Origin: Protoeuglena noctilucae
Taxonomy: Eukaryota
Length of the DNA: 64,000 nucleotides
Direction of reading: 5' to 3'
Assembly: GCA_958009085.1 (NCBI GenBank)
Contig: OY253680.1
Coordinates: 620,001-684,000, forward strand
This document shows positions 5,111-45,342 of this stretch, one piece after another. The position numbers and the translations under genes were made by a program. How positions within the stretch are numbered: position 1 is the stretch's first letter; every line of letters begins with the position of its first letter. The notes beneath the pieces were generated by a model. It was not told where the DNA came from. It did no database searches and saw only the letters and a program-made list of their open reading frames with translations.

Positions 5111-8100
5111 TCAGCTTTGGAAGTGGAGTACCGTGTCGCAGGCGATAAGGGCTTTCCTCACTGCGGGGAACGACGGCAGCCGACGCAATCACACATCACC
5201 CATGGCCATTGACGCTGCCACCGCCGTGTCTCATAACACAACACTCCCTCACAACAACACTCCGTCCCCACCACACTCCCTCACCACCTCCCTCACGACC
5301 ACACCCCCTCACCTGCCTCCACCGTGGACCGTTCCACCCCCGCCGCCAGCATCTCTCGTACAAACGCCGCGTCCCCCAGCGGCGGTGCGGGTGAGGCCGA
5401 CGGACCCACGCCCGGTCTCACGACACCCGCCACGTCTTTGACCCCGCCATCTGCAACAGCTGTCGCCTTCGGAGACGTCGCCGTCGCATCAACCGCGGTC
5501 CCTTTAGCGCCCTTCGCACCCCCACCACCATCGCCAGCCCCAGCTTTGGCGCTCTTTGCACCCCCACCATCGCCAGCCCCAGCCCCAGCTCTAGCACCCT
5601 TCGCACCCCCACCATCACCATCGCCAGCCCCAGCCTTAGCGCCCTTTGCCCTCACATCGCCTCCCACACGTACTCTGCTGCCCTTCCCCACCTCATCAGC
5701 CTCCACCTTAGCCCCCGCCTTGCTTGATGGCGCTGCCAGTGGCGCACCGCCACTCTTGGCACCACCGACACTCTCACCCTTCCCAACCCCAGCCCTTCCT
5801 TTGCCGCTCTGCGACGGCACCCTTGCACCTCGGGAGGACCCCTTACTCCCCACCAGTTTCAACACAGCCCCCTCCGCACCCTCTTGTCGTACCCCGCCCC
5901 TTGCCTCCCTCACGGGCTCCCTCACCCGCCCCTCTCCACCCGCAGATGCCCCACGCCCCACCAGCCCCGGTCTAACACCCCTCACTTTCTTCCCCACCCC
6001 ATCCGCCCCCTCCTCTTCCCCCCCGCTACCCACCCCCATCGCTCGCAGCGCTTCCCACACCCTCCGCGCCTCCCTCGCCACCGAACCCCCCCCTGACGCA
6101 GCGTCAGACCCCGTGTCAGAATCCGTGTCGGTGCCCAGCGCCCCAAGCGCCTCCCTCACCGCCCCGAACGCCCCCACCGTCTCGCGCAGAGCCCCGAATC
6201 GACCCCCAGCCCCCCCGGCCCCTGAGTCAGCCCCGTGGTCAGGCGCCAGAACCGCGCGGGGTCTCCCCGACGCCATCGCCACCTCGTCTTGCCGGTACCC
6301 GTGGCCCCACTCGACGCAGTGGCCCTGGTGACGACTGGCCACGTCGAAACGGGGCTCTGCTCTACTTCCACCCCATGTATCAACATGCCTATCACCACCC
6401 CACTTATCATCGCGCCAACCACCACCCCTCCCCCTCCGCTCCCCTCGCCCCCGCCTGGTCTCCTCTGCCCCCCCAGAGTGGTACTCCCACACTGCTGCCT
6501 CGCCCAGCCCACCCACGCTCCTGCTCATCGCCTCCCTTTGAGACGCACCCCTATGTTCTCTCATGGTGTCTTTGACCGATGGGCTATCGACTCCATTGAC
6601 GTGAACCGCAGATGCATCACGCCCTTCACCGTACCCCTCATTTCCCTCATCTCCCTCACCACCCTCACCCCCCCAAAGCGACGCCCCTTGTGCTCCTTCC
6701 TCACTCATCAAGTCACCCTCTCTCCTGAAATCTCCCCCACCCTCACTGCCACCCCCGGTCTCCCCATCCCCACCCCCTCGCCCCCTCCCACCCGCCCAAC
6801 CCCCCCGCATCACCTCCCACAGCCGCCGCTCCTCCCCCCACTCCGCCCGCGCCCTCGCCTCCCGCACCCGCAGCTCCGTCAGCTCAAACGCCAAAGACTG
6901 CAGCTCCGGGGCGATCGCCAGAAACGCGGTGCGCTCGGACAGGGTCATACCCACCCGGTGCAGGCGGCGGAGCAGGTCCATGCGGGGGTTCTGCATTGGA
7001 AAGGGCACTAATCGAATCTTTTTCATATTTTGTATAGAGAGAGATTCGATGATAGGGCATCGTTTGGTGTATCGGGAAGGAATGCTTGCTGAGGATGACT
7101 CAACCCACACCAGTCACGGGCATGTGGTCTGTCACTACCGCCCCTCACCTCATCTCTCCCATCGCACGCCACCCACGCCAGCATCGCATCGATCGCCTCG
7201 TCCATCGCATCGCCCTTGCTCTCTTTGCCACGAATCGAACCGTTGACCCCCGCGCCCTCCGTCCCCTCATCGTCATCACCCCCCGCTCCCCTGCTACCCC
7301 CCTCTCGCATCTCTGTGCCACGATCGCTACTATCGCCATCTGACAAAAGAGACGAGTCACTGCTTGTGACATCAGACGTAGACACATCCTCACTGCTCCC
7401 GCTCCCCACTTCATCCCCCTGATGCCTTTGCCTAGAATTGAACCCTTGACCTCCTCTCCCAGCCTTCCCAGTGGCACCGGCAGCAGGGCCCAGCCGCGAG
7501 GGAGCGAGCGTGTTTGCAGCCGCACCAGCCCCAGCTCCAGCACCCCTCGCATACACAGGGGCAGAAGCAGGGGCAAGAGCTGAGTGGCTGTCGTTGTGTT
7601 GGGGAGGGGCAGGAGCTGAGGGGCGGTTGTCATGTCGGGTGCTTGGTTGGGACAAGTTCCCACCCATCGCATCCCACAGCGACCCAGCCGCTGCCTCCGC
7701 AAGGCTGGGAGGCAATGGGGTGTCGCGAGTGTCTTTAGTAGCGCTGAGGCTGGGACCGCTGATGTCCTTAGTACAACTGAGGCTGGGACGCGATGGGGTG
7801 TTGGTAGTCTCCTTGGCCTTAGCACCACCCATCGCCATCGCCTGGCCCTCCGTGCCACCCCTTGCACTTGATGCCGCCTGCCCTTTGCTGTCAGTGCCCC
7901 TCGCACTTGATGCTACCTCCCCCTTGCCCCCTTTTGAATCCCTCCCAAGCCCCATCGGCACCCCCACCCGCTTCGCCCCTCGCACCACCACCGCCTCCAC
8001 AGCACCTGCCCCCTCGCCGCCCATGCCAGCTCTCACCCCCTGTCTCTCACCACCCACATCCCCTCCCACCCCCCTCTCACTCCCGTCCCTGCCACTGTGG

Positions 8101-10803
8101 CTGTCGCCTTTGCTCACGCTCTGTGCAGCACGTCGCGTGCGGCGCATCGTGGCCCGTTCCCTTGCGTCATTCATGGCCAGGCAGTCCCTCACAAAAACGT
8201 CGCGGCAAGCGTCACGCGCCGCGTTCAGCCTGCGAGGAGGTTGCGAGGAGGAGGGTAGCTAACTCTGGGTCACAGTAAAGCAAGAGATGGCAGGTGTGTC
8301 TGCGGTAGTATCTAACTGGTGCTATCTGTTCGGTTTGGGAAGGCTCGTCACATCCATAACCACACCTAGTGAGCTCTGCCATGCTAGCTTCATAGCTCAA
8401 AGCAAGCGTCCACTCGCCTCTGGTCTGCCAGGGCGTACGCGGATGCACGGTCATGGGTCGCCTGCACATTGAGAAAGAGGATAGGGTTACCACTGCGCGC
8501 AAGCTGTGCCAAACGTGCTCTGCCGGGACCCCACCATCACCGCTCGCCTGTATCTCCGCCCGCATGGCCGCCCGCTCCTCGTTGGTCATCCTCTGCGCCT
8601 GCCGGTTGACCTTGCTGCGCCACAGGGCCCTCATGGTTTCCTGCTGCCGTGCGGCGCGCATGTGCTGCGTCGCCAACTGGCGCAGGCGGTGGGACAGGTG
8701 CAGGCACTCTGAGGGCGGGGTGAATAAATGAAACCAAAGTGAATACTACTGCAAGACTTCTCGTGCTGACCATTTACATACCCTTCTTAACACCCTCATG
8801 CCCATGGCGATCTCAAACCCCATCCCACCAAGCACTACCCACCAACCCCCATCATACCCCCACCGCATCCCTCACCGACCCTGTCCCGTGGGTCCACCGC
8901 CAGCGCCACCATGCGATCGGCGAAATCCACCATGTCTCCCAGATTCATCCCCTCGAAACGAGCCAGACCCGCACGCTGCCCCTCGTCCAGCAGACCCTCT
9001 GCGCCCTCTTCTGAAACAGGGCCTCCCTCTCTCACTGAACGCACGGCGTGATGCCCCTCGTCCCGCAGACCCTCGACGGCACCCTCTCCCTCTCTCTCTC
9101 TGGTGTGTCTCACAGCACCCTGCTCAGCCCCCAACGCCACCTCAGGGTCTTCCCCAGCCATGGACAGCTCAGCCTCGGCCCATCGCTCATCCTCTACCTC
9201 CGCCTCGGCCTCGGCCGGACCCAGGAACACGCTGTCAGCGCCACTGTCAGTATTAGTGTCAGAATCGTCGGACCAGGACCCAGCGTCGGCAGCGCCGCTC
9301 CCCGGGGTGGCCCCCGTCGCTTGCGAAGCGACAGCCGGGTCCACACCCGCGCGCCGTGCGGCCCGCTCCCGCATTCTGGCAAACATCTCTCTCCTCTCAA
9401 CGGTGGTGGACGGCGCTGTGCCCGTGCCTGCGCCATGCAACAGCCCCCGCACCGCCCTCGCCCCCTCCGACAGCAGTCGCGCCCGCTGCGCCGCCACGCG
9501 CGACTCCCGCGTTCCTCTGGCTGCCCCATCATCCACCGTCGTTGCGGCTGCCGGCATGCTGATTGGCGACACGGCAGCTGCTGTTACAGCCGCTGCCACC
9601 CTTCCCCGGCCCAGCCACACGGCAGACGCAGAGACCCCAGGGCCACCCCCACGCCACGCTGCCCCGGCTTGCAATGCCAACGGCGCCCTGCCTTGCCCCA
9701 CCGCACCCACACCCGCACCCGCACCTGCACCCGCACCTACACCCACACCCGCACCCGCACCCACGCGCGTTGCTTGGGAATGGAGCCCCACCGCCGCCCG
9801 CAGCGCTGCCAGCGCCTCGTCGCCCGCAGGGACATGAAAGCGACCGGGGAGCATGGAGCCAAATGGCACTCTGCTGCTACCTTGTGTGATAACGGAGCTC
9901 AGTGGTACCACCCCATGGCTGTTCTGTGCAATAACACCATCGTCTTGTTTGATCCGCGCCTGTGCCCTGGCCTCCGCCGTTTCTGCGAAGTGCCGTCCGC
10001 ACTGCCGGTCCCGCCACGACCGCTCCCGCGCCACCTTGGCACGTACCTTAGCCCTGCGAGGGGGGTTGGTGATTGGGATGAGGGGCCATTACCATGGACA
10101 GTGAGCACGACTGAGTGTGGTAGTGGCGATTGGCGATTTGCTAGTGATATGGCCGTTGGCAGCGGTAATGGGTGGCCGTCGTCACGCCCGCACCCCCACC
10201 CCACACCCCCGCACCTCACGCAATCCCTGCACATGCCATCCACGGCGTCTCGCACCGCCATCCCCCGTTCCTGTGCCTCCCTCAGCCGCGCCCTCCTCAG
10301 CCGCAGCCACTGCTGGTCTCGCAGCCGCACCGATCGTTCTTCCTCCACAGCACGCCTTCGCAAGTCCGCCATCTGCCGAGCCCGGCGGCGCTGCATGTCC
10401 ATCGGACCGAACTCTGCGAAAGGGACAGCGACAAAAGCGGTGTGTTGCGGTCACCCACTGTCGTGCGCATGCATGCTGCTTCACCTAGCTAGCGGGGGTG
10501 CGACTCACGGCGAGGTGCGTTTCGGTCAGATGGTGAGTCGGGGCCGGGTCCGGCGTCCTGCGCCTGGCTGAGGGCAGCGGCACGTGAGAGGGGCGCCCAT
10601 TCTGCAGGCCGCTTGGTATTATGACCATGATGGGCGGTCCCGGCCGGGAGCGACAACGTGGCAGACTGGGTAGACTTCTGATCCCGCGGCTGTGCACCAT
10701 CGGGCTCGTTCTGCTCAGATAGCGCGTCTTGTCGCTTGATTCGCTGGTGGAGCTCGAGCAGAGGCAAGACGGGAAACCAGGGCTTTCGGAGGGGCTTGGT
10801 CAT
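5111..10803 (-). CDS. Large low-complexity (Gly/Ala/Glu/Arg-rich) hypothetical protein with helical/coiled-coil segments; 3' end uncertain
   Basis: Frame-consistent exon chain from ATG 10803 (MTKPLRKPWF) through QFGPMDMQRRRARQ, RAKVRAKVARER, ECLHLSHRLRQL, ATHDRASAYALADQR, LNAARDACRDVF, NPRMDLLRRLHR. Two GC donors (8547, 8417). No recognisable domain. Confidence 0.6.
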
Positions 10804-11414
10804 CGCTCCCGACGCGTGGTGCGCGACGTGCGAAGGGATGGGCGTGTTGGTCGGCACGATGGGGTCGCGACTGCGATCGAAACGATGCGGAGAGCGTGTA
10901 AATGAGACGCGTTCGCGCATGCGTGCGTGAGAGAAACTCAATTTCCATGCCAAGCATAGGCAACATCGCTGCTCTCTCCGCGCCGTCCCCGTCGCGCTGG
11001 CCCCCGCTGCGTTCTCGTCATTGCGAGTGTCCCGAGCGCGGGCCGTCTTTGGTCGACGCGCGGTCTCCATGGCTTGCAGCAATGCCCCTCAGATGCGCCG
11101 TGGCATGGCGGCTCATTCAGCGAAGTCCATGTCGCCCGTCGGTGACCGGACTGCGTCAACAGTCATGCAGGACTCGCGAAGCAGGGAACAGCTCCGGCGT
11201 CACGACAGCCAGGATGCCCGACTCCAGTTGCGCCAGTGGTGGGGCTCGTGAGCTCACAACCGCGCGCCGGAAGCCGTCCCCGCTCCAGAGATGCAGAGGG
11301 TGCTTGTTGCAGCGCTAGAACCCATACCTTCCTTGCTAGGCGGTGCCCACAGATTCGTGCTAACCAAACCATGCACGCCGACTAGTGCGGGATGAGGTGG
11401 AGGCGTGCGGCATC

Positions 11415-14400
11415 ATGAGGGGAAGAGGGAGAGTGCTTTGCGGCCACTCGGTGGCCCTCGCGCTCGCGGCCCTCGTGCTCGCGGCGCTCTGCTGCTTCTC
11501 CGCTGAGGCGACCACGCGAGGCCTGAAGACGTCGATCCCGCAGCCATGGGGCCCGGTAAGAGGTTTTATATCATGTTGAGAGCCTGAATTACCCGGCGCG
11601 GTCTCGTAGCCCACGTTTGGCTCGCCAGGGGGATGCGAATGCAGCACAGGATGCGAGCGCGTCGTGCGAGCTACGGGCTCGTCGCCGATGCCTATGGGGC
11701 TCAGCACGTCGTCACCATCTGCGTCGCTGTCGAACCACTCCCCAACACTGCCCCGGCGCCGCTTCCTCGCGCGCGCCCACTGCCCTCGTTCCGGTTGCAT
11801 TCGTATTCGGCCCCGGACTCGACTGGTCACGCGCGCGCAAGCAGTAGCGGATATCCGATTCCGCTGTTGGTACATGAGCGCGTGCGCCGACCTCACCGGC
11901 GCCCCCGACGCGCCGCCCGCAGATTCAGGTCGCGGCCTCCATCACCGACAACCGGAACCCGTCCCAGGGGGCCGCGACGTGCGTGATGGACAACTTCGCC
12001 GGAACGACGAAGTGCTGGGGCAACTACCCGTATCTGGGCATCGCGCAGGACTCCACCGTCGGAGCGGGTGAGTGGAAGAGAGACGGCGCTGTGGACTGAG
12101 TGGGTGCAATCGCCCACGCGGAGCGCGCGCGCCGCATCTCCTGCGCTCGGCGACCTCTCTTATTCAACACAGGACTGGGCGACGCGGCGAATGAGGTCGT
12201 GCAGTCGATGCCGCGCACGGGCGCGCCCGTGAACGGCGTCAACATCGCGAAAATCGTCCCCGCGGGCTCCACGTCGTGCGCGCTGATGACCGACGGGACC
12301 ATCCAATGCTTTGGATCGAACTCCTTCGGTGCGCTGGGGGTCGGCTCCCGGTCCTCGCCCAGGTGCGGAGAAATCGCGGAGCGTATTTGCGACAACGTTC
12401 GCCCCTCCGCCCCGCCGCGCCCACTGCCCCGGCCGGTCCTCGCAGGTGGGACAAGATGAGCGGGAGCAGTTTGAGTTTGACGAACGTGGACCTGGGCGGC
12501 CGCGTCGCGGTGGATTTGGTGGGGGCGGATGCGTCTTTCTGTGCCATTCTGTCCGCGGGCACCGTGGCCTGCTGGGGCAAGTCAGGTGACCTGAGTGGGG
12601 GTGCGATGTTGAAGATGCTAGATGCATCGTCATTTGCATAGACTCCCGTAATGCTCGTCATGCTCGTCCCGCCCGCAGCACCCAACACCAACGGCCGCAC
12701 GGGCACGGGCGGCATCGCCCCGCTGGGCGGCTCCCGGATCCTGTCCTCCAACTCTGCCTACTGCTCCCTCTACGCGCCCGCGGGAACGGTGAGGGTCACG
12801 AACGTGCTACTGTAAATGTGACATGGCGCGTCGCACTGAAGGACACGAGGTCGCCATGGCAAGCGGTTGTGCTTTTATGTACAGAGCCCAGTGAATCACA
12901 TCTCGCCTTTCCATATCTGATGATACACCTGTTAGTAACACTCTCCACTCGCACCCCTCTCTCCATCTCACAAGCCCGCATCTCCCTCATCCCCACCCAC
13001 CCACGCTCGCTCCCCAACGCAGACCAACTCGTGCACCGGCAACGGCTGCGGCATCTGCATCCAGAACCTCCCTCAGCAGTACTCGAGCGACGACGCCCCC
13101 GCCATCTACATCGGCCTCTCCGACCAGCCCACATACGGATTCGCGGTGTCGCACCGATTCGATTGGGCGACCGTTGGGTCGGGCATCTCGGACGGCGGCA
13201 CGCTGGTCAACATCGGTGGGTTGGACATCGTGAGTTTGCTGAAGAGGGATGCGGCGACGGGGGCAGAGCTGGACTGGTACCTGCAATCGTCGGCGCTGCC
13301 CACCCTGGCCGGGAAGGTGTGGCCGTACGTGCCGGGGTCGGCGTCCAAGCCCACCTCCTTCGCGCTCATATCAGGCGAGTAGGTGTGGGTGGGTGGGTAT
13401 AGGTGTATGGCCACCTCCTTTGACCTCAGAGCAAACTGTGTGTCACTTCGACGCACCTGCATCACACGTCTGCATCCCCTCGTCTCGCTCCCTCCCTCCC
13501 TCACTCACTCGCCCACCCAATCTTCGATCTCACTTTTACCATTTACTCCCCACTCCCCTTCCAGAGATCTCCCCGGTCTCCGTGTGGAGCGAGGCCCTCA
13601 AGCGCTTCACGGGCCCCCTCCCCAACGGCGCCAATGGAGTGCCATTCATGGTGGCAGATCCGCAGTACAGCAACCGAGTCGGGAAGGTGTATCTGTTCGC
13701 GTGGAACGGCACCGCCACGGCGCCCACGCCGCTGTTTGGGGCCAGCGGGGAGGTCGACCCCAGGCGAGTGCGAATGGGGGTGTATGGTGTGTGGGGGTGT
13801 GTTGATGGGTGCTGCCATGGGTGGTGTGTGGGTGTGCTATTGGCTGATGTGTGAATGTGTTGTGCTGTCAGCCAGTCCCTCTTTCCCCTCTCACTGTCAC
13901 CCACTCTCGGCCTCCCCCCAATCGCAGCGCATTGCTCTCCACTTCCCAATACGAGCCCAACGGCCAGTTCGGCCTCTCTCTGGCCGTGGACGGGGGCGAC
14001 GGCCAGGGCGGCTACACGTTCGTCTTCGGGGCCCCCGGCATCCGCATCGGTGGCAACAAGGGCCAGGTATTCGTCATGCGGCTCTATAGCGACGGATCCT
14101 GGCAGAACCTGACGCCGCTTGAGGATCCCGTCAACTCGACCGTGCTGTTGTCAGGCGGGGCGTTTGGGTCGTCGGTCGCGATCAGCGCGGATGGGCTGCT
14201 GTTGGTGGTTTCCGATATCAATGCGGATAGCAGTGGGGGGACGACGAGAGTGGGGGTGGTGCGGGTGTACGCCAGGGCGAGCGTCGGGACCAGCGCGGCG
14301 CCCGTGGCATTCACGCTCGTGACGGCGGTGAGGGGGGTGTGGGTGGGGGTTGATGTGATGTGATGGTGTGTCGAGTGGTGTGTGGCACCTCTGCCTTTGT

Positions 14401-17400
14401 CATTGCGTCGCTGCGCTTGCATTGCCACCGTGAGTGCTACCCCCACCCTCACTGCCAACTTCACTGCACTGCCATCCCTCTACACCCACCACTGCACCCC
14501 CACCCACCCCCCCCCCCCCCCCCCACTACCATCCCCCACCCTCACCCCCACCCCCCCGCAGACGGGCGGCACCCTCACCCCCCCCACCTCCGATGCCGCG
14601 GCCACGATGGCATTCGGCACATCGATAGCGCTGTCCATGGACGGCAACTGGCTGGCCGTGGGGGCGCCATTCGACACGGTGAGGGAATGCGAATTGTTAA
14701 GTATAGGCAAAGACACTCGCATGGTCTCTGCAGCTGTGACCAACCCCACCCAACCACCACAAACCACCCCCCCACCCCACTCCCAACACCCCCACTCCCC
14801 CAGACCGCCCCCACCCCCCAGCCCGGCAGCGTGTACGTCTACCGCCGCAACCCCAGCACCAACGGCTTCAGCCTTCAGCAGTCCATCACAGGCGCCTCCC
14901 TCAACCTCAGCAACGGCTCCCGATTTGGCGCATCGGTCTCTATCGATGCATCGGGCACGTCTCTGTTGATCGGGTGTCCCTTGTGTTCGCCCAATGACGT
15001 GTCGCATGCGGGGGCGGCGTATTGGTTCAAGAGGAGGCCCAGCCCCAGCAGCACGGCGGTCACGCTGTTCAAACAGGCGAGGGGTTGGGGGGTTTGGGTG
15101 TGGGTGTGGGTGTGGTGGGCATGAGTGAGGGGTGTGATGGGCAAGTGCGGTGCTGCTTTACACATGCCTATCCATAATAGACCAAACCAAAACCAACTTA
15201 TAAACATACTTAATACCACTCCCTGCCCACCCCCCCTCACAGGTCACTGCTGACTTCAGCTCCACCCCCTCCACCCCCTACCTGACGGAGTTCGGGGGCC
15301 CCACCCAGGACAACCAATTCGGCATCATGGTCAAGCTGGACCGATACTCGGGGAGCATGGTGAGGGACGTATGTGGTGATTATGTTAGTGATGATAGTAC
15401 TGGTGATGGATGTATGGTGAAGCTGGACAGATACTTGGGGAGTATGGTGAGGGACAGAGTGGATGATATGCTGATGATAGAAGTCATACCTGAGCTCTCA
15501 CCAACCCACCCTACCCCACCCCACCCCACCCCCGCTCCCACCACCTGCCACTCCCTCACCCCACCCCACCCCTTCTCTCATCACTCTCAGTACCTTCAAT
15601 TTCGCCCCACTCACCAACCCCTCCCACCCTACCCCACTTCCCCCCCCTTCACAACCCCAGACCGGCGTCAGCAGCCGCGGCCCCGCCGTCAGCCAGGGCA
15701 AGAACTTCCTTGGCTCAGTCGGGTTCTACAAGCTACCCGGACAGACAGGAGTGGAGTTACAATCGCTGGATCTCGATTACACGGGGAATGGGGCCCAATC
15801 GGTGTCTCAGGTGGCCATGTCAGACACGCATGCCTGCGCGCTGATGGCGGACGGGAAGGTGGTGTGCTGGGGGAGCAACACTGCAGGGGCGCTGGGGTGA
15901 GTGGTGCTCTCTATATGAGTGATTGGGGTAGTGGTAGTGGTAGTGGTGATTGTGACTGTGATGGTAGTGATTGACAGGTGGTGTGCTGGGGGAGCAACGT
16001 GGCGGGGGCGCTGGGGTGAGTGAGTGGGATTGGGTGGTGGTGTTGATGATAGCGGTAGTGGTGGTGATGGTGGTGAGAGGTGGTGTGCTGGCTCGTCATC
16101 GTCCATCCTCACTTGCCTTTATACACTTATCCCCACCCCATCACCAACCCCATATCTCCCCCCCCCCCTATCTACAGCCGTGAGGACCAACCGGAGTCGT
16201 ACCTCTCTGGCGACACCCTCTCCGGCACCGGCCTCACCCTCTTGCCCATCTCCATGCCCGCCAACATCCCCGCCAAGTCCATCGCCGTCGGATACCACCA
16301 GACGTGTTTCATACAGCTGCTGTCAAACTGGCTGTACTGCTGGGGCCTGGATATGAACATCGACCGGGCTGCCACGCGGCTGCCCGTGGGCTACCAGGGC
16401 GCGGCCGGCGGTCTTTTATCGAATCTGACGAGTATCGATCTCGGGTCGGGCGCCAAGGTGCAGGCGGTGGGGACCTACAGGGCCACGTGCGCGGTCGTGA
16501 CGAGGTGAGCAGGGGTGGGGGGCTGGTAGTTAGTACAGGGGTATGGCCGTATCGGGTGCTGAATAACTGACAGACATTGGGACTGAGTGTTACAGGGCCA
16601 CGTGCGCGGTCGTGACGAGGTGAGGGGTGGGGTGGGGGTGGGGTGTAGTGTACAGAAGGTGGGTCGTGATAGTGACAGTGACAGTAATCATAAGACAAGA
16701 TAAGACAACAATATAACATCTTTATAACACCCATCCTTCCTCACAAAAATCTGAGCGTGAGCCCCGTGCTGGTCTGCTGGGGCCATTACAGTAGTAGAAA
16801 TAGTAACAGTGACAATAAGATAATAACAAGCCATTCTTAATTACCCAATCCCCTCTTTCTTTCAGGAACCTCAGCGTCGGCCCCGTGCTGGTCTGCTGGG
16901 GCCCGGCGGGCACCCCCCACGGCGGCGACACAGCATCCGCTCTGACACAGGTCTCTGGCATGCAGAGCCTGACGCTGGGGTCTGGCAACGGCACGACGTT
17001 CGTGAGCGTGTCGATGGGAAGCCAGCACGCTTGTGCTGTTGCCGCGGATTACACGGTGCGGTGTTGGGGGCTGGACCAGTATGGGTCGCTGGGGTACAAT
17101 GGGGCGGTGGAGAGCATCGGGAACAAGGCAAGTGGGTGATAGGATGAAAGGTTAACTAGTGTAATAGGATCAGTATATTATATTTATATTGATCTTAGTA
17201 GTGATATTTGGTGCTTACCATGTCGTGTCTCGCTACCAACACCCCACCACACAGTTAGCACCCCCCCTCCCCTACCCCTTACCTCAGAACACTTTCCTCG
17301 GCGATTCTGCGGGCGAAATGGCCACCGCAAACGCCATTAAGTACAAACCCCCACCGCCACCCCCGCCGCCACCCTCCCCACCCCCCAGCCCACCCCCACC

Positions 17401-20400
17401 ACCGTCGCCCCCACCCCCGCCCTCACCCCCACCTTCCCCGCCACCCTCACCGCCCCCACCAGCCCCACCGCCGCCCCGCGATGGGACTGGGACGTGGATG
17501 GTGGGGCCTGATTGTGGGGGTATCAAGAAGATTACATATGGCACGCTGGCGTCTTGGATTGAGCCCTATAGCGGCACCAAGGCATCAATCACCAATGACC
17601 TCACCGTCGACCTCAGCGTGAGTAGTAACTAACATGGGGTGGGGATGTATGGACACAAATGGAGATAGTTATAGTGATAATATAAATACAATAAGTACAA
17701 TAAGTGAGAGTAATAACAGTAATAGCACCGCAACAATCCCCACTCTCCCCCCATCTCCCCAGCCCGTCACTTCCTGTGATGTCGAGCCCCACATGTTCGG
17801 CCCCTCGATGCTGCTCGTGATGACCAGCAGTGTCCGACTGCCAGACGAGGACGTGCCAGTGGACCTGTTTCGCACCGACATGTGCCAGATCAACGACGCG
17901 ATCAACGTGGATCGATTCAAAGTGCATTTGAACGTCACGTTCGATCGGGGGGTGGCGGGGACGGCCAGCGTCAGGCGAGGGATGGGGGGGTGAAGTGCCT
18001 GGGTGGATGTTGCATAGCGGAGAGTCGATGGAATGTGATGCAGTTATACTATAGTACTATAATACTATCTCACCCACTCGCAGCGTGGACGGCGGCAACG
18101 ATTGGTACAAGCGCAACACGCTTAGCATGCTTAACACTTTAACCATATCGTATAATGTCCCATCCGTCTCCGCAGCGTGGACGGCGGCAATGATTGGTAC
18201 AAGCGCAACATGCGCAACCCCCGCAACGTGCTCCCCACCCGCCCCTCCAACACCTATCGATTCGCCATCGATTTCCAGGGCCCGCCCGTGCGACTGGAGT
18301 TCCCCTATTCCCGCAACTTCAACTGCGACCGCGGGCTGACGTTCACGGTGAATTGGACCGAGCCAGTCACGCTGGTGAGGGGGTAGGGGGGGGGTTGGGT
18401 GGGAATGTGGGTGGAGTGAAGGGGAGAGTGATGGAGAGTGAAGGTGAGAGTGGGGGTGGGGTAAAGAGTGATGGTGTGAGAGAGGATGACAGCCACGACA
18501 GTCGTTCTCACTTATAAATATCGTAGATTAGTATCGTATATACTATCCTCACTGTATCCCCCTCACCTCACCCACCCCCAGGCCAAGAGTGACATCCCAG
18601 GCGTGGTGTTCTCTTACCCAGACACCGACAGCAACAACAACAACACGACAAGCACCAACAATGCCACTCCATCACCAACACCATCGCAATCGCCATCACC
18701 ATCATCAACATCCACGCCATCACTCAACAACGCCACCCCCCCTCCCACCCCTACTCCCACCCCCACTGCTACCCCCACCGCCACCCCCGGCGTCCCTCTC
18801 CCCACCGACGTCCCCCCCACCCTCAGCAACGGCCTGCAACTCTCCCTGCAAGCCTACGACCCCTATTCTGGCATCGCCACGTTCTTCGCCAGTGCCCCTG
18901 GGCCGGGGTTCTATTTCATCCACGTGGCGGGCACCCGTGCTCCTAGACAGGGTGAAGACCCCAGTCAGAGAGTGGCGTTTACGGACTTATACGGGAATAA
19001 CGCCCAAGAGACGACGGAACTGGTGCAGTGTTACGTTCCCAGTTTGCTGGAAACGGGGGCGGCGGCAGCGGTGGCGCGGGGTGCGATCGTGGGGGCTGGG
19101 CTGGCGTTGGTTGGCACAACGATGGGAGCGGCGGCGTCGGTGGTTGGGGTGGCGCCCGGGGCGGGGGTGGGGGTGTCCGGTGCGGCTGCGGTGGGGATGG
19201 TGAACGCGCTGCAGGTGCTGGGGATGACGGCGACGCTCATGCCCGACAACCTGTCGCCGCAGCCCAGGGAGATTGCCGTGGTGAGGGGTGTGGTGGGGTG
19301 GGGGTGAAATGGGGAGTGGTGCTGAGTAAAGCCGATAATGGAAAGAGCTGCTTGGGCGCGGCTGACGTCACTGTACCACTGACCTGCACCAGTCATCGTT
19401 ACTTAGTCTAGTTATCATCAATCACCATCTATATGTCCACCCACCCCCCGCAGGCCATGGCGGGCACCTTCAACCTCGAGTACCCCGCGCCCTTTGGACT
19501 GGAGACGCAACTCACAAGGGGGCAGACCAACGTACTGCCAGTGGCAACAGATCAACTGCCTGATACAAACACAGGCACGGGAACAGCCACAAGCACTCCT
19601 GCTACCACTGCTACCCCCACTGCCACTGCTACCGCTGCCCCCACTGCAACCCCCACTGCCACCCCCGCTGCCAACCCCGCTGCCACCCCCGCTGCCACCC
19701 CCACTGCCACCCCCACGGCAAAGCGATCATTGTCTGGTGCGCTGAACCGCCCTCTGTCGCCTGCGGCCGTCTTCGACATCTACGGGCATCCGTTGGACAG
19801 GCCTGGGATGTCGAATGACGCAGGTGGCGATATGGACAGCGATGGCAGTGGTGGGGGCAGCAGTGATGGGAGCAGCAGCAGTGACGGTGGCAGCCGTGGC
19901 AGTCACAGCGACGGTCGCTGGCACAGCCGGGATGGAAGCAGTGCTAATGATGGCATCGACGATAACTATGATAACTATCACTGTGATCACTGTGACGACG
20001 AGCATCACCCTCACCACCACTCCTCATCGCCCTCCCACTCCCCCTCCCACGCCCGCCGCCTGTTCGCATCGCAAGTGGTCGACGCCTTAACAAAAGAGAA
20101 CGCCCTCCCACCCAACATGTCCATTTCCACCGCCCACCGCCTCGCCTACGACCTTACTGAGGCCGATTGGGCGTAAGTACAGTCCAGTCTGACGGAGCGC
20201 CGCGCCAGAAAACTGCTGGGCAACCCGGTTTCGGCGTGGAACAGCGTGCAGGGGAGCATGTCCGGGACGTTGCAGGGTCGATTCTCGGCGGGTCCCTACA
20301 CGTACGTTTTGAGGAAGCTCTTCTGGGTGGCCTTCACGCTGGGGCTCATCGCCGTGCCGCACGGGGCGGTCATGTTCGTGTACCTGGTGAGTGGGGGTGT

Positions 20401-23400
20401 GTGGGGTGGTAGATAGGGTCATGTTCGTGTACCTGGTGAGTGTTGGGGGTGTTGGGTGGGGGTGAGGGTGAGGGCCTAGCGCCGCCGCATGGCCCCCATG
20501 CCCACTGCATGCACGTCCCATATCACACTCCCCCCATCTAAGTGACTCACCCATGATCTATATCTTACCCACCCCATCTCCCCATTTCCCCCCAGGTCAT
20601 CCTCAAGCGCCCCCGCATGCCCCCCATGCTCGCCTTCCCCCGCCCGGAGATCTTCGTGCTGCAGATGACGCTGCCCGTGTCCATGCAGTGCGTCGCAAGC
20701 CTGTTCGCCATGCACCGCTGGCAGCCCATCGTGGTGAGTGTGCTGAATCTCAAGCGTCACACAGGTGTCAAAGTCGATTTCGTCGCACTGTCGACCTTAG
20801 TAGCACTTCATAACAACTACGAGTATAACACATAGTTCAATGATATCACTTTCACTTTTCCACTCATGCAGTACGGCGTGTTGCTTCTGCTGGCCATCCC
20901 CCTCCCCATCGTGGCCGGGGTCGTCAAGGCCGTCTGGGACACGCAGGCAAGTGCGATTGGGTGGAATGACTGTTAGTATTTTAATTCAAAAGTATATTTA
21001 TGATAAAATTTATAATTTTTTTATTATAAAAAAACATGCGTTTCATGCATTTTATTGTTACCATAATTACAATAATTTTAAACCACCATGACCTTCCCCC
21101 CCTTATCAATCCCTCCCCAGGTGAAGGTCCACGCGGTGGACCGCAAGTTCTACTATCTCGTGGATCGTTTGAAACTCCGGGAGGCTGCATTGCGCCGTCG
21201 TTGGTACACGGCATGGCTGGGGCCGTTCCGGGGACTGCCCCGGGGCGAGTGGGTGGCATCCGACGAAAGCGGGGAGCGATATTTGGCTAGATGGGGCCAA
21301 TTATTCGACAATTTGATTGGTCCCTTGGTGGTGAGGGTGGGCGACGACTATCGCTTTTTACCTTCGTTGTCGAGGTTCAATCGGGGGACGCTGGTGCCGT
21401 TCATTCCCGGGAAGTACAAGGACGCCAGGGATGTGCTGGAGAGGAGGAGGGCCAGGTGGATCATGAGCGGTGAGATGAGGGGTGGGGGGGGTGGGGTAGA
21501 GTGCATGATATGATGAGCGGTGAGGGGGATGGGGGCCGATGGATCGCGAGAGGTGTGGGTGGAGAGAGGATCAGGGTCAGGACTGTGGTTGATCTGCTAA
21601 TGCACCCACTCTCACCCTCACTGCCACCCCCACCCATTCACCCCCACCCCCACCCCACCCCCACCCTCACCCATTCACCCCCGCCCCCGCCCCCACTCCC
21701 ACCCCCCAGGCTACCTCCGCGTGCTGATGGTGTCCGTCCAAGCTCTGCTGACTTTCGGCCTGGTGCTGGCATTGGCGGTCATCCCCACCACCACCTCCAC
21801 CGCTGTCAGCCAATCGACGGGAATGACCGTGGTACAAGCGATACTGACTTGGGTGTTGATGACGGTGCACCCATATATCAAACTGGGCGATCAGGCGTCC
21901 TTTGCGCTTGGCGCGGTGTCAGCGGGTTTCACCTATCTGCTACTGATCGCGGCGAATGGGGTGGCTGCCAGTGCAAACGCGAAATACCGAATGGCGGCGG
22001 GGCTGGTGCTGGGCAGGCTGCTGCTGTTCACCATATTCCTGGGCGTGGCGGTGTTCGCCTTCTCTCAGCTGTGGAGCGTGTGGTCGTTTATAGCGTGGAT
22101 CAGGCGAGTTGATTGGGTATTTGGGTATTTGGTGGGGGGTGTAATGATAATAGTAATTATATTTACTTTACTTATTATATTTACTTTACTTGATTCTTTA
22201 CTATTGTAAAATGATCAGTGAATAGAGACTGTTGCTAACATACATACATGTTTCATAACATACATGTTTCATCTCCTCGCAGGGACATGGTCAATGACCT
22301 TTTAGAGTCGCGGGGCAGGAAGAAGCACTTTGAGACCACGGCAGACCAGGCGGCACTCGAGGTAAGTTATATAATATGTGAAATATAATATAATATAAAT
22401 ATAAATATAAAAACCAAATTACTTGCAGGTGCGCCAGGGCATGTTGGCGAAGAAGTACGCCAACCGTTGGATGTTCTACGCGCTCCATCGCCCCCTGCAC
22501 GGCTGGCCGCGATTGGACGAGCCGACCGCTGCGGAGCGGAAGGAGTTGCGGAGACTGGCGTTGCGGGTCGCCAGAGAGCACGACGATTTCGTGGAATTGG
22601 ACTGGCTCAGCCGCATACGGGAGGGAGGGGCGGAGGCGACACGGAAGGTTGGGGGGGGGGGGTAGTGGGGGGGGGGGGGGGGGTGTTAATGAGTGGGGTA
22701 GAAGAGGGGGGTTGGGATGCATAGCATCAACGAGTGCCCTGGTTTACCATCTCACCTTCTCTCACGCCTGCTCACCACACCTCCGTCGTTCCGCCCCACA
22801 ACACCACCCCAGCCCACATCCACCTATCAAACCCCACACCCTCAACACTCCACCTTACCCCTCACCATCCCCCAGGCCGCCCGCGAGAGGCGCCTGCAGA
22901 AGAAGAAAGTGGTGGGCGGCGATGACGACGGGAATGGTGGACTGGCGCTGGATGATGCGCTGCGCAGGCAGGACGACCACGTGAAGAGGGCCAGGGAGAC
23001 GTACGGGTACCGGTGAGAGTGGGGGTGGTTGAATGGTAGTAGTTATGGTGATTGTTATAGTGAATAGTGGTAGTGGTAGTGAATAGTGGTAGTGGTAGTG
23101 AAGAGGGCCAGGGAGACGTACGGGTACCGGTGAGAGTGGGGGTGGTTAAATGGTACTGGTAGTGGTGGTGGTGGTGGTAAGGAAGACAGCGTGCGATGGC
23201 CACCCCACCCCTCTCACCCACCCCTCTCAACCCCACCCCTCTCACCCACCCCTCTCAACCCCACCCCTCTCACCCACCCCACTCACCCCACTCACCCCTC
23301 TCAACCCCACCCCTCTCACCCACCCCACTCACCCCACTCACCCCTCTCAACCCCACCCCTCTCACCCACCCCTCTCACCCCACCCACTCCCCCACACCCA

Positions 23401-24218
23401 ACCCACCCCACTCCCCACTCCCCCCCCCAGCCTTGGCCGCCGCGCTGCCAATTTCCTCATGGGCCGGGGATTCCAGGCCAACGACGCCCAGGGACAGCAA
23501 CGTGCTGCGGACATGAGGAGACTCGACACGGTTCGTGCTGTGAGGGGGTACGTGGATGTGGAGGAGGGGGGGCTACCCTACGACGTGGAGAGGGGGCAGG
23601 TGAGGGGATGTAGGGGTATGTAGGTGCAGAGATTACAGAGAGGTTTTAGATTTTATCGGATGCAATGGGTTGTTAAGCATCTGTTTGCTACCATGCAACC
23701 CCTCTCTCCTCTCACCCCCCTCACCCCACACCCTCACCCCTCACCCTCACGCGCAGCCCCGCATCCCCGGCCCCACCAGCGAGCTGGCGGGTGGCAACTG
23801 GATGCTCGACCGCTTTTTGTTTGGAGATGGGAGGGCGAGTGGTGATGCGACATCGACCATCAAACAGAAGAGCGGGGTGGGTGCAGGGCCGGGCAGTGGC
23901 ACGCGCACTGGGCTGGGCGGGAGTGCAAATGGGGAGGGGGCGGAGGAGTTGGGGAGTGGGGAGGGGTGGAAGTGGTGGTGGTGGGGGCAGGGGGCGGGGG
24001 GGGCGGGGGAGGTGGGGAGTGTGGAGGTGGAGGGTGGGGATGATGAGCGGGAGAGGGAGGGGGAGAGTGAGGGGGAGGAGGGGGGTGGGAGAACGTGGGG
24101 GTGGTGGGGGAGGCGGGGTGAGAGGAGAGGGGGTGGGGAGGGAAGAGGGGGTGGGGAGGGGGAGGGGGGTGAGGGGGCGGGGCGGGCCGTTGCAAATCGT
24201 AAGAGGAAGGTGCGGTGA
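11415..24218 (+). CDS. Very large secreted/membrane receptor-like protein: signal peptide, RCC1/BLIP-II-like repeats, FG-GAP propeller repeats, SPn Pro-rich linker, TP-rich stalks, multi-pass TRP-like TM region, cytosolic tail (~25 exons)
   Basis: Signal MRGRGR..VALALAALVLAALCCFSAEA. RCC1-type TCVMDNFAGTTKCWGN, SCALMTDGTIQCFGSNSFGALG, HACALMADGKVVCWGSN, HACAVAADYTVRCWG. FG-GAP AFGSSVAISADG, AFGTSIALSMDGNWLAVGAPF, RFGASVSIDASGTSLLIGCP. PPPPSPPPSPPP at 17350-17478. Hydrophobic helices at 19060-19250, 20320-20390, 20600-20940, 21710-22100. Confidence 0.8.
23201..23425. repeat. C/A-rich intronic minisatellite (units like CCCCACCCCTCTCACCCACCCCTCTCAA)
   Basis: Tandem iteration is directly visible just upstream of the acceptor at ~23430. 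Confidence 0.85.
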
Positions 24219-24503
24219 GGGGTCAAGTGGTGCGACATGCGACTATGACGACCGTGATGCGCTTAAGTGACAGTGTAGGACAGTGTAGGCTTTTTCGGGC
24301 CAGCTGGTGGCGGGATTCGAACCTGACAGCAGCCATCTTAGATAGGGTAACAATAATAACCGCGTGCTGCATCTTCCTAGCTAGTTCCTGCCTAGCGTCA
24401 CTTTGAAGGACATGCCTGTCCTTCACTTGGGTGTTCCCATTCAACATAACACAATGCAATACATCCGTACCTGTCACCTCAATCACACGCTCATGATCAT
24501 CTA

Positions 24504-28231: not shown

Positions 28232-30543
28232 TTAAAAGTGCACAGTGGCCCTGTCCCCTGCGTCGGGCATCCGCATAACGGAGGCCATGCGGGCGTGGTA
28301 CTTGCGCGTCTGCTCCAGCAAAGCCTCGTACTGCGGGGAGAGAGAGATGAGAGATGCATATCGGACATGCGGTCACAATTATAACGTGGCGAAGGTTCTT
28401 TTTCACACGCAGCCCCACATCACACACGGTGTCCGTCACAGCCGACGCAACGCACAGCACTCCCCACAGCTCCCGCACCTTCTCCAGCAACGCCGTGACG
28501 TTGGCTTCGTGCTGCGCCTCGGCTATCCGCGCCTGCTCCCTCAGCGCCCGTGCCTGTGCTTCGTTCTCCTGCATCTGAGCCTCGGCGGCGTCATTGGCCG
28601 CCTGCACTGCCTCCTTCTGTGCACGCTGCTGCTCGACCCCCGACGCCGCCGCCTCCTTCCGCAGCGCCGACTGGGCCTCCAGCCGCTGCATCCGCTCCTT
28701 CAGAGAGCCCTCCTGCCGGTGCAGGTGCTGCCTGCGTGAGCGAAGCGGGTGCGGGAAAGTGCAGGGAAGTGCAGCTAGCATGGCATGGGCGGGAAGAGTA
28801 TACATAAGTATCGGATGCGGGAGTGGCAGTGCTAGAGGACCCGCAATGGCGCAGCCACCCCAGTTACCACCGCCGTGCTGCCACCACGACCCCAGTGACC
28901 ACCAAACCCAAGGCCGCACCTGGAGGCCTGCAGGTGCAGTTGTTCGCTCTCCAGCTGCTCGATCTGCGCTCGGAGGTCCTTGACGCGACGCGACACCTCC
29001 TTCTTGCGAGCCACTTGCTCCTCCAAGGCTTCAAGCGCCTGCGTCATGCCCTGCACCTCCCGGTCGTGACGCTGCAGGGCGTCCAGGCGCGCCTGGTGCT
29101 CCCGGAGGCGGTGCTCGGCCTGCGTTGATGAGAAGAGACGAGGGATTTGCAACAACACTGCAACAACACTGCCGATGTGTGACATGACGCAGCCCCATGG
29201 CCACCCACTTGGCATGGAACGACGAACCATGTCGCATCGATACGTCAGCCAGCCACGTTGCGGCAACAGCCATGTCGCAACATGCGCGTGCTGGGGTTCC
29301 CGGATGCCCCATCGCCGTGCCCGTGCCCATGTCTAACCCCCCTTCCCCGGCGCCACGCACCGCCACGAGCGCTGCCTTCTCGTCCTCCAATCGCCTCTCC
29401 CTCTCCGCCAGCGCCGCTTGCAGCTTCTCGGGACTCTGCACGATCGCGTCCTCCAGAGCACGTTGCCGCGACTCGGCCTCCGCCACCTCCCGGCGCCGGT
29501 CTGCCGCCACCTGAGTCAGCTCCGCCGTCCGCGCCTTGAGGGCCTTGAGCTGCTGCTGCAGACCGCTCTGCAGGCCGGATGCGGTGGACGGGGTACTGGG
29601 TCGTGCCACAGGGTCGTGCCCAATGTGCAGCACGTCGCAACCGGATTATGATGCCCAATCGTCTAACCTGCTCATCGTTCCACGATTCCCCTAACCCTGC
29701 CTCACCTGCTTGTCGTTCAGCTGCTTGACCTGGGCCAGCAGTGCTTCTGCCTCCTCCTCCACGGCAATGGCCTCCGCGTCGTCCCTGGCACGCTCCGCCT
29801 CCACCTCCGCCAGCTCCGCCTTCAAGCGGCGGTTCTCCTCCAGAGCCGCGTCGTAGTCCGCCCTGCGCGCGCGGCGAGCCCGGCGGGTCGGGCGCACGCG
29901 GCGGCAGGGATGGCAACGGTTTGGTGCGAAAGGGATGTCATCCCGCACTCACTTGACCTGCTCCGACTTGTCCTGGTGCGACAGGAACACCTGCAGCTTC
30001 TCCTCTCGCCATTTGCCGAAGTTGATGATGGCGGACAGGTTCCGCCGCGTCCGCGCCTGCGGGCAGGGCGGGCAGCTGGCGTGACGAGATGCGGTCGCCC
30101 CGCGCGGCCGGCGCGGAGGCTCCTGGGCCGGTAGCTCACCGGCTCCGGCTTAAAGACGTCGCGTATGCTGAAGTCGAGGCACCCTGCTGCGAAGAGGAGC
30201 CTCATGGTGTTGCGGAGGAAGGACATGACCGGGATGGACTCGTCGTGGAGCTCCGGGAACTCCATCGCGTCGATGGCAGCAAAGACGGGCTGCTGCATCT
30301 CGTCCCTGCATCCGCGAAGGAGGAGCGGGCGTTCGCGGGGGACGCGGGGCGTCCAGTCGCGGCGGGCAGGGCGTCGCTCCCTCGCCTCGTGACGCCCACG
30401 AGCATGGTGACCAGCGTTTCGTATAGAGGCTTCACGGCCTCATACGTCGGCTTCAGAAGGTTGGCTTCCGTGAAGGGGATGTCCAGCTCGGCGAGGCAGG
30501 CGAGGATTTCCCCGTTGTCGAGGAGGGGGAAGGAGTACGACAT
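28232..30543 (-). CDS. NUF2: Kinetochore protein Nuf2
   Basis: MSYSFPLLDNGEILACLAELDIPF..LLKPT, FPELHDESIP, DFSIRDVFKPEPARTRRNLSAIINFGKWREEK, followed by a long coiled coil. 7 exons. Confidence 0.92.
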
Positions 30544-45076: not shown

Positions 45077-45342
45077 CAACCTGGTTGGCATCGTAACAAC
45101 CTGGGTTGTATGGTAGCAGACAGAGTGGCATGCAATGCACATTGCGTCTGTGTGCGCTTTCGTTTTACCGGATCGAACACGGCAGCTTGCAAAACCAGTA
45201 GCTCGCACGAACTGGTATTGAGCGCCGGCCGGTTGCCACATTCGTGCTTGCTGCTTGAAGCGGCAGAGATAGACGTGATGCAGATTGAACCAACGTATCT
45301 ATATGCAATGTCAATTATCTATTACTAATCAACGGTGCTCGT

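Follow-up and report, generated by a model that had tools for sequence, protein, structure and literature searches.

What makes the coding strand of a gene swing from G-rich to C-rich and back in step with its splice sites? The question is raised by a 64-kb stretch of Protoeuglena noctilucae DNA (assembly GCA_958009085.1, contig OY253680.1, positions 620,001 to 684,000; hereafter the window, with coordinates counted from its first letter), which is compact, intron-rich nuclear DNA of a marine eukaryote with a G+C content of ~0.63. We observed a wave of strand-compositional domains, in which every donor is straddled by a G-domain and every acceptor by a C-domain; the wave is an exchange of G for C only, and it is real and far beyond chance, but regional and not general. 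Along the whole of 12900-24220, the coding-strand skew at the 80-nt scale describes a sawtooth, in which 25 G-domains (median 195 nt) alternate with 26 C-domains (median 219 nt). The initial annotation had reported G-rich donors and C-rich acceptors in long genes of this region, and the examples quoted there, at 14328 and 14500-14580, are as described. However, 12900-24220 really holds at least three adjoining genes on the + strand, which encode an RCC1/FG-GAP repeat protein (exons match Pfam RCC1_2 and FG-GAP_2), a multi-pass membrane protein and a coiled-coil/Gly-rich protein, and it is split by an in-frame stop and an AT-rich spacer.

Splice sites were anchored with metatranscriptome contigs from four runs (two samples of one study), which were aligned to 5000-24999; about half of the sampled words of 12900-22899 were present in these runs, and 0.93-0.99 of them in four DNA-like runs under one species label. 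Of 26 contig joints, the 15 among the matches listed were taken as RNA-confirmed introns, all within 14679-23756, and with boundary ambiguity allowed 11 of them are GT-AG and four are GC-AG. A two-strand dynamic-programming gene finder, trained on the RNA-confirmed exons and junctions, gave 30 models with 136 introns for the window. It recovers 15 of 15 RNA-confirmed introns, but these are the same introns as its training set, and self-retraining was dropped because recovery fell to 11 of 15. A single-strand finder on a G/C-collapsed alphabet was rejected since it fused everything into one gene, and strand assignment by splice-motif matches per kb was also rejected as too noisy, because G and C tracts mimic splice sites. 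Introns outside 5000-24999 are model predictions. Pfam matches on single-exon translations back the strand, frame and several junctions in 13 genes, including RCC1/FG-GAP, PIH1, Nuf2, reticulon, cation efflux, LRR, short-chain dehydrogenase, ankyrin, NAD kinase, FYRC/U-box, SelO and DAG-kinase-like genes. The models err at 20071-20187, which spans an in-frame stop within RNA-contiguous sequence, at 22362-22428, called an intron and really a spacer, and at 16596-16619, called an exon and probably an internal copy of a junction (an echo, see below); model 23877-24332 is doubtful, and models at 1374-4862, 11093-12194, 36475-36922, 47335-48006 and 55540-56217 (several) look non-coding. GC-AG introns are common (43 of the 136 predicted), CAG precedes the GC donor in all four RNA-confirmed GC-AG introns, and the acceptor is CAG in 15 of 15 RNA-confirmed and 129 of 136 predicted introns. 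A tRNA scan found no tRNA, and a search of metagenome contigs for orthologous loci gave only four distant relatives (31-35% identity), which were of no use for comparison. A SelO exon matched vertebrate proteins best, at 46% identity, and no close relative appeared. Pelagophytes are an improbable source, as they have 0.14-0.9 introns per gene and the window has ~4-5; Emiliania huxleyi has GC at ~60% of its donors, compared with four of 15 RNA-confirmed and 43 of 136 predicted introns here.

With the splice consensus removed, the first 60 nt of the 15 RNA-confirmed introns have a mean G/C skew of +0.70 (positive in 14 of 15), and the last 60 nt a mean skew of -0.74 (negative in 15 of 15); skews of +0.6 and -0.6 are attained by only 5.8% and 6.0% of random 60-nt windows, respectively. 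We called an intron polar if its 5' skew was at least +0.4 and its 3' skew at most -0.4. This threshold selects 33 of the 136 modelled introns, one of which (22362-22428) is the AT-rich spacer, unspliced in the RNA contigs, and four of the 15 RNA-confirmed introns fail it at one end. Across the window the polarity index is bimodal, with a main peak at ~0-0.25 and a second hump at 1.0-1.75. The polar introns lie on both strands (29 on + and four on -) and all are G-rich at the 5' end in sense orientation, while no reversed-polarity intron occurs among the 136 modelled. Thus the strand flip that had been claimed is borne out by the four minus-strand introns, although in the minus-strand gene at 5111-11070 the C-richness at the 3' ends is less clear than the G-richness at the 5' ends.

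From the first to the last decile of polar introns, G declines near-linearly (0.52 to 0.04) and C climbs (0.05 to 0.59), with A and T flat; ordinary introns follow the same trend weakly (G from 0.40 to 0.25, C from 0.22 to 0.38). GGGG occurs 47.9 times per kb in polar 5' halves vs 0.56 in 3' halves, CCCC 51.9 times per kb in 3' halves vs 4.5 in 5' halves, and a G4-type motif is present in 14 of 33 polar 5' halves vs eight of 103 ordinary ones. Polar introns are also longer (median 216 nt vs 117 nt), their AG-free zone before the 3' splice site is wider (58 nt vs 26 nt), and the branch-point-like word CTCAC reaches 15.4 per kb in their 3' halves vs 0.85 in their 5' halves. CTCAC(C) matches a branch-point consensus and, read on the opposite strand, is exactly the donor core (G)GTGAG; by a hand estimate it stands at ~3 times its composition expectation in polar 3' halves, for example in 23700-23756, 23200-23430 and 14440-14561. 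Skewed tracts are found without an adjacent splice site as well, at 23931-24182 and in the internal C/G/C/G blocks of 19454-20386.

The polar introns cluster by region: 17 of 26 modelled introns are polar in 12.7-24.4 kb, 12 of 19 in 37.5-45.9 kb (11 in an LRR gene and one at 45555-45811) and four of 91 elsewhere, so that 29 of the 33 fall within two blocks. Hence the reported G-rich donors and C-rich acceptors hold for the RNA-confirmed introns of 12900-24220 and not for all genes (33 of 136 introns). The wave is present in at least four unrelated genes. In the conserved housekeeping genes of the window, introns are short and unskewed and codon use is flat, with G-ending codons making up 0.55 vs 0.50 of G- plus C-ending fourfold-degenerate codons, G3/(G3+C3), in the first and second halves of 22 Pfam-supported exons (p=0.16). 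The single polar intron of the dehydrogenase gene is the one at the end that adjoins the second block.

In exons of the wave regions, the skew of all sites together stays modest, at +0.13 to +0.27 over the 30 nt that precede the donor and -0.10 to -0.26 over the 60 nt that follow the acceptor, and the synonymous sites carry a switch from C-ending to G-ending codons, as had been proposed. In the 10 exons with RNA-confirmed junctions at both ends, fourfold G3/(G3+C3) climbs from 44/182 over the first halves to 135/188 over the second (Fisher p=1.4e-20), with nine exons rising and one tying; in the RNA-bounded exon 18582-19280 it goes from 14/54 to 55/67. By fifth of the exon, the ratio is 0.32, 0.35, 0.68, 0.81 and 0.79 in 16 exons between two polar introns, and 0.55 to 0.64 in 64 exons between ordinary introns, the mean third-position skew being about equal in affected and unaffected exons. 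The strength of the shift follows constraint: skew changes by 0.7 at codon position 3 (from -0.31 to +0.40), by 0.35 at position 1 and by 0.2 at position 2. In exons of at least 300 nt the G-phase extends 200-300 nt upstream of the donor. The change is limited to G and C, since twofold purine-ending (NNR) codons keep their G/(G+A) between halves (0.81 vs 0.79) and pyrimidine-ending (NNY) codons barely change. Amino acids take part, first halves being richer in Pro, Ser and Thr and second halves richer in Val and Ala; exon 18582-19280 is Pro/Thr/Ser-rich first and Gly/Val/Ala-rich last.

Such exon starts and ends, the repeat-encoding genes and the many introns that are predicted only could mean that the pattern is an artefact, produced by amino-acid composition, by the shared descent of protein repeats or by the gene models themselves. 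We regard this as hardly credible. With amino acids stratified the position effect persists (r=0.41, permutation p=0.0002) and all eight fourfold families agree; a logistic model that also takes in the first two bases of the following codon gives relative position a coefficient of 3.47; and the gradient is found in RNA-bounded exons and across the unrelated genes mentioned above. The loss of any G3/C3 gradient once amino acids are controlled, named at the outset as the refuting outcome, is therefore not what was observed. Moreover, a single motif in the LRR exon 43885-44074 takes C3 and then G3, reading, just as was first noted, ctc cgc gcc ttg gac ctc tcc in one repeat and then ctg cag gcg ctg gac ctg tcg.

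Exon and intron are coupled junction by junction. The 5' skew of an intron correlates with the third-position skew at the end of the upstream exon (rho 0.43), and its 3' skew with that at the start of the downstream exon (rho 0.45); both correlations hold after gene-mean centring, the cross terms between an intron end and the far-side exon are not significant, and the two ends of the same intron do not co-vary in skew within genes (rho +0.19). Over synonymous shuffles, GGG runs show no excess in exon halves (z=1.0) and CCC runs a slight one (z=2.2). Avoidance of cryptic splice sites was rejected as the cause in exons because C3 is relatively commoner before A and NNR codons keep G in the C-phase, and a nearest-neighbour or run-extension context was rejected because the jump is equal for every next base.

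Complementary intron ends could have been selected to form bridging helices, in which a G/U-rich 5' half pairs with a C/A-rich 3' half and the splice sites approach each other; the profile of G from the 5' end indeed mirrors that of C from the 3' end. In folds of 29 polar introns of 100-320 nt (polar class only), 44 of 67 predicted pairs join the two halves vs 22.6 in whole-sequence shuffles, the end-to-end distance is 7.9 vs 14.4, and the minimum free energy is -74.3 vs -64.3 kcal/mol. Shuffles that preserve each half, however, reach 49.6 cross-half pairs (with a distance of 13.0 and -67.0 kcal/mol), and the z score of the folds moves from -2.3 against mononucleotide shuffles to -1.7 against half-preserving ones. 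Because half-preserving shuffles give as many cross-half pairs, the pairing potential follows from composition alone. For three RNA-confirmed introns the predicted fold is one hairpin that runs from end to end (z of -1.65, -2.39 and -1.06 when compared with dinucleotide shuffles), but the predicted stems bury the 5' splice site. Nor do cognate arms pair better than non-cognate ones (-38.9 vs -39.3 kcal/mol, mean rank 17.1 of 31), and in folds across C-G-C blocks the G block makes nearly as many pairs upstream, across the exon (624), as downstream (840). Duplexes between an exon end and the next exon start are no stronger than in ordinary genes (-39.0 vs -38.6), and therefore bridging helices leave the exonic gradient unexplained. 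The pairing of ends put forward in the initial annotation thus stands as predicted end-to-end hairpins, while the half-preserving shuffles, the cognate test and the lack of co-variation between arms all speak against it as a selected feature; the pairing potential appears real but generic, with no sign of co-evolved helices in these folds.

A precedent for such helices exists. Zebrafish introns carry an (AC)m-(GT)n bridging structure, and human introns that start with GGG triplets and end with CCC triplets are known (Lin et al. 2016, PMC4691745); in the bridging introns the repeats co-occur across introns and not across exons, the structures are far more stable than shuffles, and splicing needs the repeats and not U2AF2 (PMC4691745). 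The polar introns resemble these in a complementary low-complexity composition at opposite ends, a predicted end-to-end hairpin and the status of a distinct subclass. Unlike them, they show a graded G-to-C composition through the whole intron instead of AC/GT dinucleotide repeats, complementary blocks that alternate across exons too, uncorrelated arm strengths, and a polarity that runs into synonymous exon sites, which is not reported for that class; their stability over shuffles appears modest. On balance, we think it improbable that selected bridging helices made the wave.

Introns of the wave also contain echoes, which are decayed copies of a splice junction inside its own intron. Aligning each junction to the interior of its intron in 85 introns of at least 110 nt gave 11 donor echoes (exon end plus donor), which lie 30-130 nt from the real donor, and seven acceptor echoes (acceptor plus exon start), which lie mid-intron; all are in the two blocks. 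They are what short junction-spanning tandem duplications would leave if the outer site stays in use, and tandem repeats fill 40 rows in 11.5 kb. The exonic part of the donor echoes amounts to 353 aligned sites with 32 differences, among which C was lost at 18 of 71 sites vs G at six of 168 (p=1.7e-6), the commonest changes being C>G (10), C>T (six) and A>G (six). The polar introns might alternatively be copies of a mobile intron-generating element (an introner, or miniature inverted-repeat transposable element) with G-rich and C-rich terminal inverted repeats, as would fit their inverted-repeat-like ends, their clustering in lineage-specific genes and their greater length. Yet all-against-all blastn of the 136 introns returned only low-complexity (GGGGT)n/(CCCCA)n matches, 68-82% identical and without a core in common, the two ends of an intron show no specific complementarity, each echo copies the junction of its own intron, and the exonic synonymous sites would stay unexplained. 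Within the window, this origin is very improbable and largely refuted.

A selected splicing code is possible, if rather unlikely. Factors would read G-rich RNA at the 5' splice site and C-rich RNA at the branch point and 3' splice site, and efficient selection in a very large population would write the code for long, repeat-laden introns into synonymous sites. The exact phase with RNA-confirmed sites, the orientation that follows transcription on both strands with no intron reversed, the weak gradient of the same kind in all introns, the near exclusion of C from 5' halves and of G from 3' halves, and the enrichment of CTCAC and wide AG-free zone of polar 3' halves would all fit, as would the directional loss of C from copies freed from coding constraint. 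G-rich and C-rich intronic splicing enhancers have additive effects in human GC-rich introns whose pyrimidine tracts are weak (Murray et al. 2008, PMC2481429). Both motif types lie there upstream of the pyrimidine tract and are interchangeable, and a stem-loop was considered but unsupported by mutants, LCAT intron 4 minigenes with inverted or replaced arms being spliced normally (PMC2481429). The arrangement of G triplets and C-rich enhancers is found in the window, where GC-rich introns bear runs of GGG close to the donor and runs of CCC ahead of the acceptor; unlike the enhancers as that source presents them, G and C are here almost fully segregated to opposite halves and the effect reaches 200-300 nt into exons. 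This reach is far past known enhancer ranges, and further points tell against a splicing code. The pattern is absent from the conserved housekeeping genes of the window, even from introns of 180-236 nt, and clusters by region and not by intron length; exons have no excess of G runs, C followed by A is not avoided in second halves, and NNR codons do not respond. The exon-definition code suggested at the outset may still apply, but no motif-level signal for it was seen in exons (GGG z=1.0; C before A not avoided).

The reading that we tentatively favour, at somewhat less than an even chance, combines junction-proximal growth by duplication with a strand-specific G/C fixation bias seeded at splice-site tracts, as two coupled DNA-level processes in two hypervariable regions of the window. 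Introns would lengthen inward from their ends through short tandem duplications of junction-proximal sequence, so that the 5' half comes to consist of repeated G-rich sequence from the donor side and the 3' half of repeated C-rich sequence from the branch point and pyrimidine tract. The splice-site tracts would seed a fixation of G for C that depletes the G-rich strand of C and the C-rich strand of G at nearby weakly constrained sites; it may run near completion in introns and, in exons, go only as far as the protein allows, leaving a switch from C-ending to G-ending codons part-way and the Pro/Ser/Thr-rich starts and Val/Ala-rich ends. Damage and bypass of C on the displaced G-rich strand of DNA prone to R-loops or G-quadruplexes is a candidate source, the hairpin potential of the pre-mRNA would be a consequence and not a cause, and the weak gradient of ordinary introns would be the seed.

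A DNA-level origin is favoured because of the regional clustering, the G/C-only change, the scaling with constraint, the continuity across junctions and the duplications. The absence of a motif-level signal, the directional loss of C in donor echoes and the skewed tracts that lie away from any splice site also speak for it. The pattern, with its phase, its orientation and its restriction to G and C, is directly seen, as are the coupling at each junction, the duplications and the disappearance of C from copies; that the bias is mutational or fixational and not selected, and what its biochemical source would be, we infer. A junction-linked mutational or conversion bias tied to the echoes, one of three causes first suggested, fits best of the three through its junction coupling, G/C exchange, echo C loss and regionality; neither it nor pairing nor an exon-definition code is proven. 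Several points count against the favoured reading. A neutral process would need a very large, sevenfold strand asymmetry between loss of C and loss of G, which selection on RNA would explain more conventionally, and if there were a drive towards G, the NNR codons of second halves should have a higher G/(G+A), yet the ratio is unchanged there. Selection at the RNA level would, with no need for seeding, predict the strict phase with splice sites and with the direction of transcription. Acceptor echoes show no direction (C lost at 10 of 68 sites, G at seven of 57), and without a matching loss of G the mirror half of the model is therefore unsupported. Moreover, the direction of change in echoes assumes that the constrained exon copy is ancestral, and all statistics are limited to one 64-kb window.

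How far do known systems account for the wave? Promoter DNA with GC skew that is prone to R-loops, and transcription-coupled asymmetry, place an excess of G on the non-template strand, with one sign along the transcription unit or a decay from the start site. Such skews share with the wave a plausible route to strand-specific loss of C; unlike them, the wave alternates in sign ~25 times over 11 kb, in step with the splice sites. Splicing-coupled strand asymmetries at intron ends were reportedly described by Touchon et al. in 2004. AG is avoided in the pyrimidine tract (Yildirim and Vogl 2023, PMC10946897). Like these effects, the wave is tied to splice sites and not to the whole transcription unit, and G is depleted before the 3' splice site; but they are reported to be small, restricted to intron ends and mostly a matter of pyrimidine vs purine, whereas G is here exchanged for C with an amplitude of ~0.8 over whole introns and half-exons, in some regions only. 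Position-dependent synonymous bias near splice sites is known as a weak and short-range effect, and the exon-end skews of Wu and Hurst are said to be weak and limited to tens of nucleotides. Those codon and amino-acid skews stem from exonic splice enhancers, with purines enriched as either end of the exon is approached (Wu and Hurst 2013, PMC3787667). Synonymous choice depends on the distance from the splice site in both cases, but an enrichment of purines towards both ends is not seen in the wave exons, where the two ends have opposite signs, C is set against G (~0.25 to ~0.75), NNR codons are unchanged and neither GGG excess nor motif enrichment accompanies the change. The exonic half of the wave thus goes well beyond the exon-end enhancer skews in size, reach and sign structure. 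No description of an exon-internal switch from C3 to G3 in phase with splice sites was found in the literature searched, whose coverage leaves out most subscription journals, and the wave is not fully explained by any known splicing rule or mutation process.

Table 1. Wave blocks, introns and exons discussed in the text (window coordinates; paired values are 5'/3' skews in sense orientation)
Feature	Position	Strand	Remarks
Predicted polar intron	6991..7178	-	sense-orientation skew
Predicted polar intron	10054..10236	-	sense-orientation skew
Block 1 of wave	12900..24220	+	sawtooth; 17/26 modelled introns strongly polar
Predicted GC-AG polar intron	13764..13927	+	flanking exon piece 13925-14327 seen in RNA
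Polar intron, gtgaggggggtgtgggtggggg ... C-run	14328..14561	+	+0.72/-1.0
GT-AG intron	14679..14803	+	RNA-confirmed; 3' half G-free (-1.0), 5' half weakly G-rich
Exon	14804..15076	+	RNA-bounded; fourfold G3 2/25 in first half, 15/21 in second half
GC-AG polar intron	15077..15242	+	RNA-confirmed; one predicted end-to-end hairpin, z=-1.65
Polar intron	15360..15660	+	RNA-confirmed; donor-junction echo at intron positions 54-96
Polar intron	15897..16177	+	RNA-confirmed; donor-junction echo at intron positions 79-126
Predicted polar intron	16620..16865	+	probably part of longer intron 16505-16865 with echo mini-exon
Predicted polar intron	17132..17462	+	long (CCCCCA)n-like 3' array
Polar intron	17618..17762	+	RNA-confirmed; AT-rich middle
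GC-AG intron	17975..18175	+	RNA-confirmed; +0.71/-0.38; acceptor-junction echo at intron positions 104-147
Polar intron	18375..18581	+	RNA-confirmed; 5' skew +1.0
699-nt exon	18582..19280	+	RNA-bounded; single C-to-G switch near nt 317
Polar intron	19281..19453	+	RNA-confirmed; predicted hairpin fold, z=-2.39
Polar intron	20387..20595	+	RNA-confirmed; identical 26-nt donor echo and acceptor echo
Intron	20734..20871	+	RNA-confirmed; polar at 3' end only (-0.07/-0.60)
GC-AG polar intron	20947..21120	+	RNA-confirmed; middle very AT-rich
Polar intron	21470..21709	+	+0.90/-0.91; edges match RNA pieces 21118-21469 and 21710-22100
GC-AG intron	22104..22282	+	RNA-confirmed; polar at 5' end only (+0.89/-0.20)
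Polar intron	22648..22875	+	RNA-confirmed; +1.0/-0.94; predicted fold z=-1.06
Polar intron	23013..23430	+	RNA-confirmed; +1.0/-1.0; identical 42-nt donor echo; 74-nt-period C-rich tandem array
Polar intron	23600..23756	+	RNA-confirmed
250-nt (GGGGAG)n-like tract	23931..24182	+	skew ~+0.9; 3' end of last block 1 gene; no confirmed donor adjoining
Predicted polar intron	28732..28919	-	sense-orientation skew
Block 2 of wave	37600..45100	+	long gene ending in LRR_6 repeats; introns all predicted
LRR exon	43885..44074	+	Pfam LRR_6, E=2.4e-12; one motif, C-ending codons in repeat 1, G-ending in repeat 2
Predicted 480-nt polar intron	44075..44554	+	holds donor echo and acceptor echo
Polar intron	45555..45811	-	+0.66/-0.85; conserved short-chain dehydrogenase gene

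Several features of the blocks deserve a description of their own. At intron 14328-14561, one RNA contig holds 13925-14327 and 14565-14677 three letters apart. RNA pieces 16177-16502 and 16864-17122 flank 16505-16865, and within the gap 24 nt from the end of the preceding exon recur, with the peptide TRATCAVVT repeated; this copy was modelled as a mini-exon and is probably an echo within one 361-nt intron. The RNA-contiguous 933 nt of 19454-20386 form an open frame that is broken only once, by a stop near 20150 (...TEADWA*VQSS...), and beyond it the frame is open to the donor at 20386; this would mean either two genes with next to no spacer between them or readthrough of the stop. In the RNA-covered stretch 22283-22647, a stop is followed by an AT-rich 67-nt spacer and then by a new start; the spacer (within 22340-22430, ~0.2 GC) lies between two + strand genes and is crossed by one RNA contig, and intergenic distances in the window can thus be below 100 nt. 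RNA contigs in three of the four runs join the intron interiors 15948-16075 and 23157-23179, with a few foreign letters between. The libraries therefore contain unspliced intron RNA, and the chimeric assembly arises because of shared repeats, both interiors carrying (TAGTGG)n-like sequence. At the kb scale, a net G skew of ~0.35-0.44 on the sense strand at 5001-7000 (-) and 38001-40000 (+) is a second, non-oscillating strand asymmetry in the same regions, which at 5001-7000 stems from Gly/Ala/Asp-rich low-complexity coding sequence. The exon 34990-35631 (-) of a cation-efflux (CDF) transporter encodes a very long His-rich loop (HGHGHHHHGHGHGHGHSHGHGHGHGHS...DHDHDHDDHHDHDHDHDHSHS).

The locus is of high interest because affected and unaffected genes stand side by side, a few kb apart, and serve as internal controls; the share of exon-intron architecture that is selected for splicing, as against that which is a by-product of mutation and duplication, can thus be tested in one organism. 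Regions with the wave distort codon-usage statistics, seed low-complexity protein tracts and cause chimeric assembly of transcripts, and they confuse gene finders, which here set an exon or intron on an echo or spacer in at least two places. It is a bolder idea, and one we hold to be unlikely as matters stand, that splice junctions organise the local mutation spectrum, the G-tract that follows each donor and the C-tract that leads up to each acceptor nucleating a self-reinforcing, strand-specific drive from C to G and from G to C that is written by mutation and not by selection. One possible route would be loss of C from the displaced G-rich strand where DNA is prone to R-loops or quadruplexes, with bypass of the abasic site afterwards. 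If this were true, such a drive would spread over hundreds of bases, override codon usage and reshape low-complexity protein segments; together with the duplication of junctions it would make introns grow, and exon-intron architecture would be written into the composition of the DNA.

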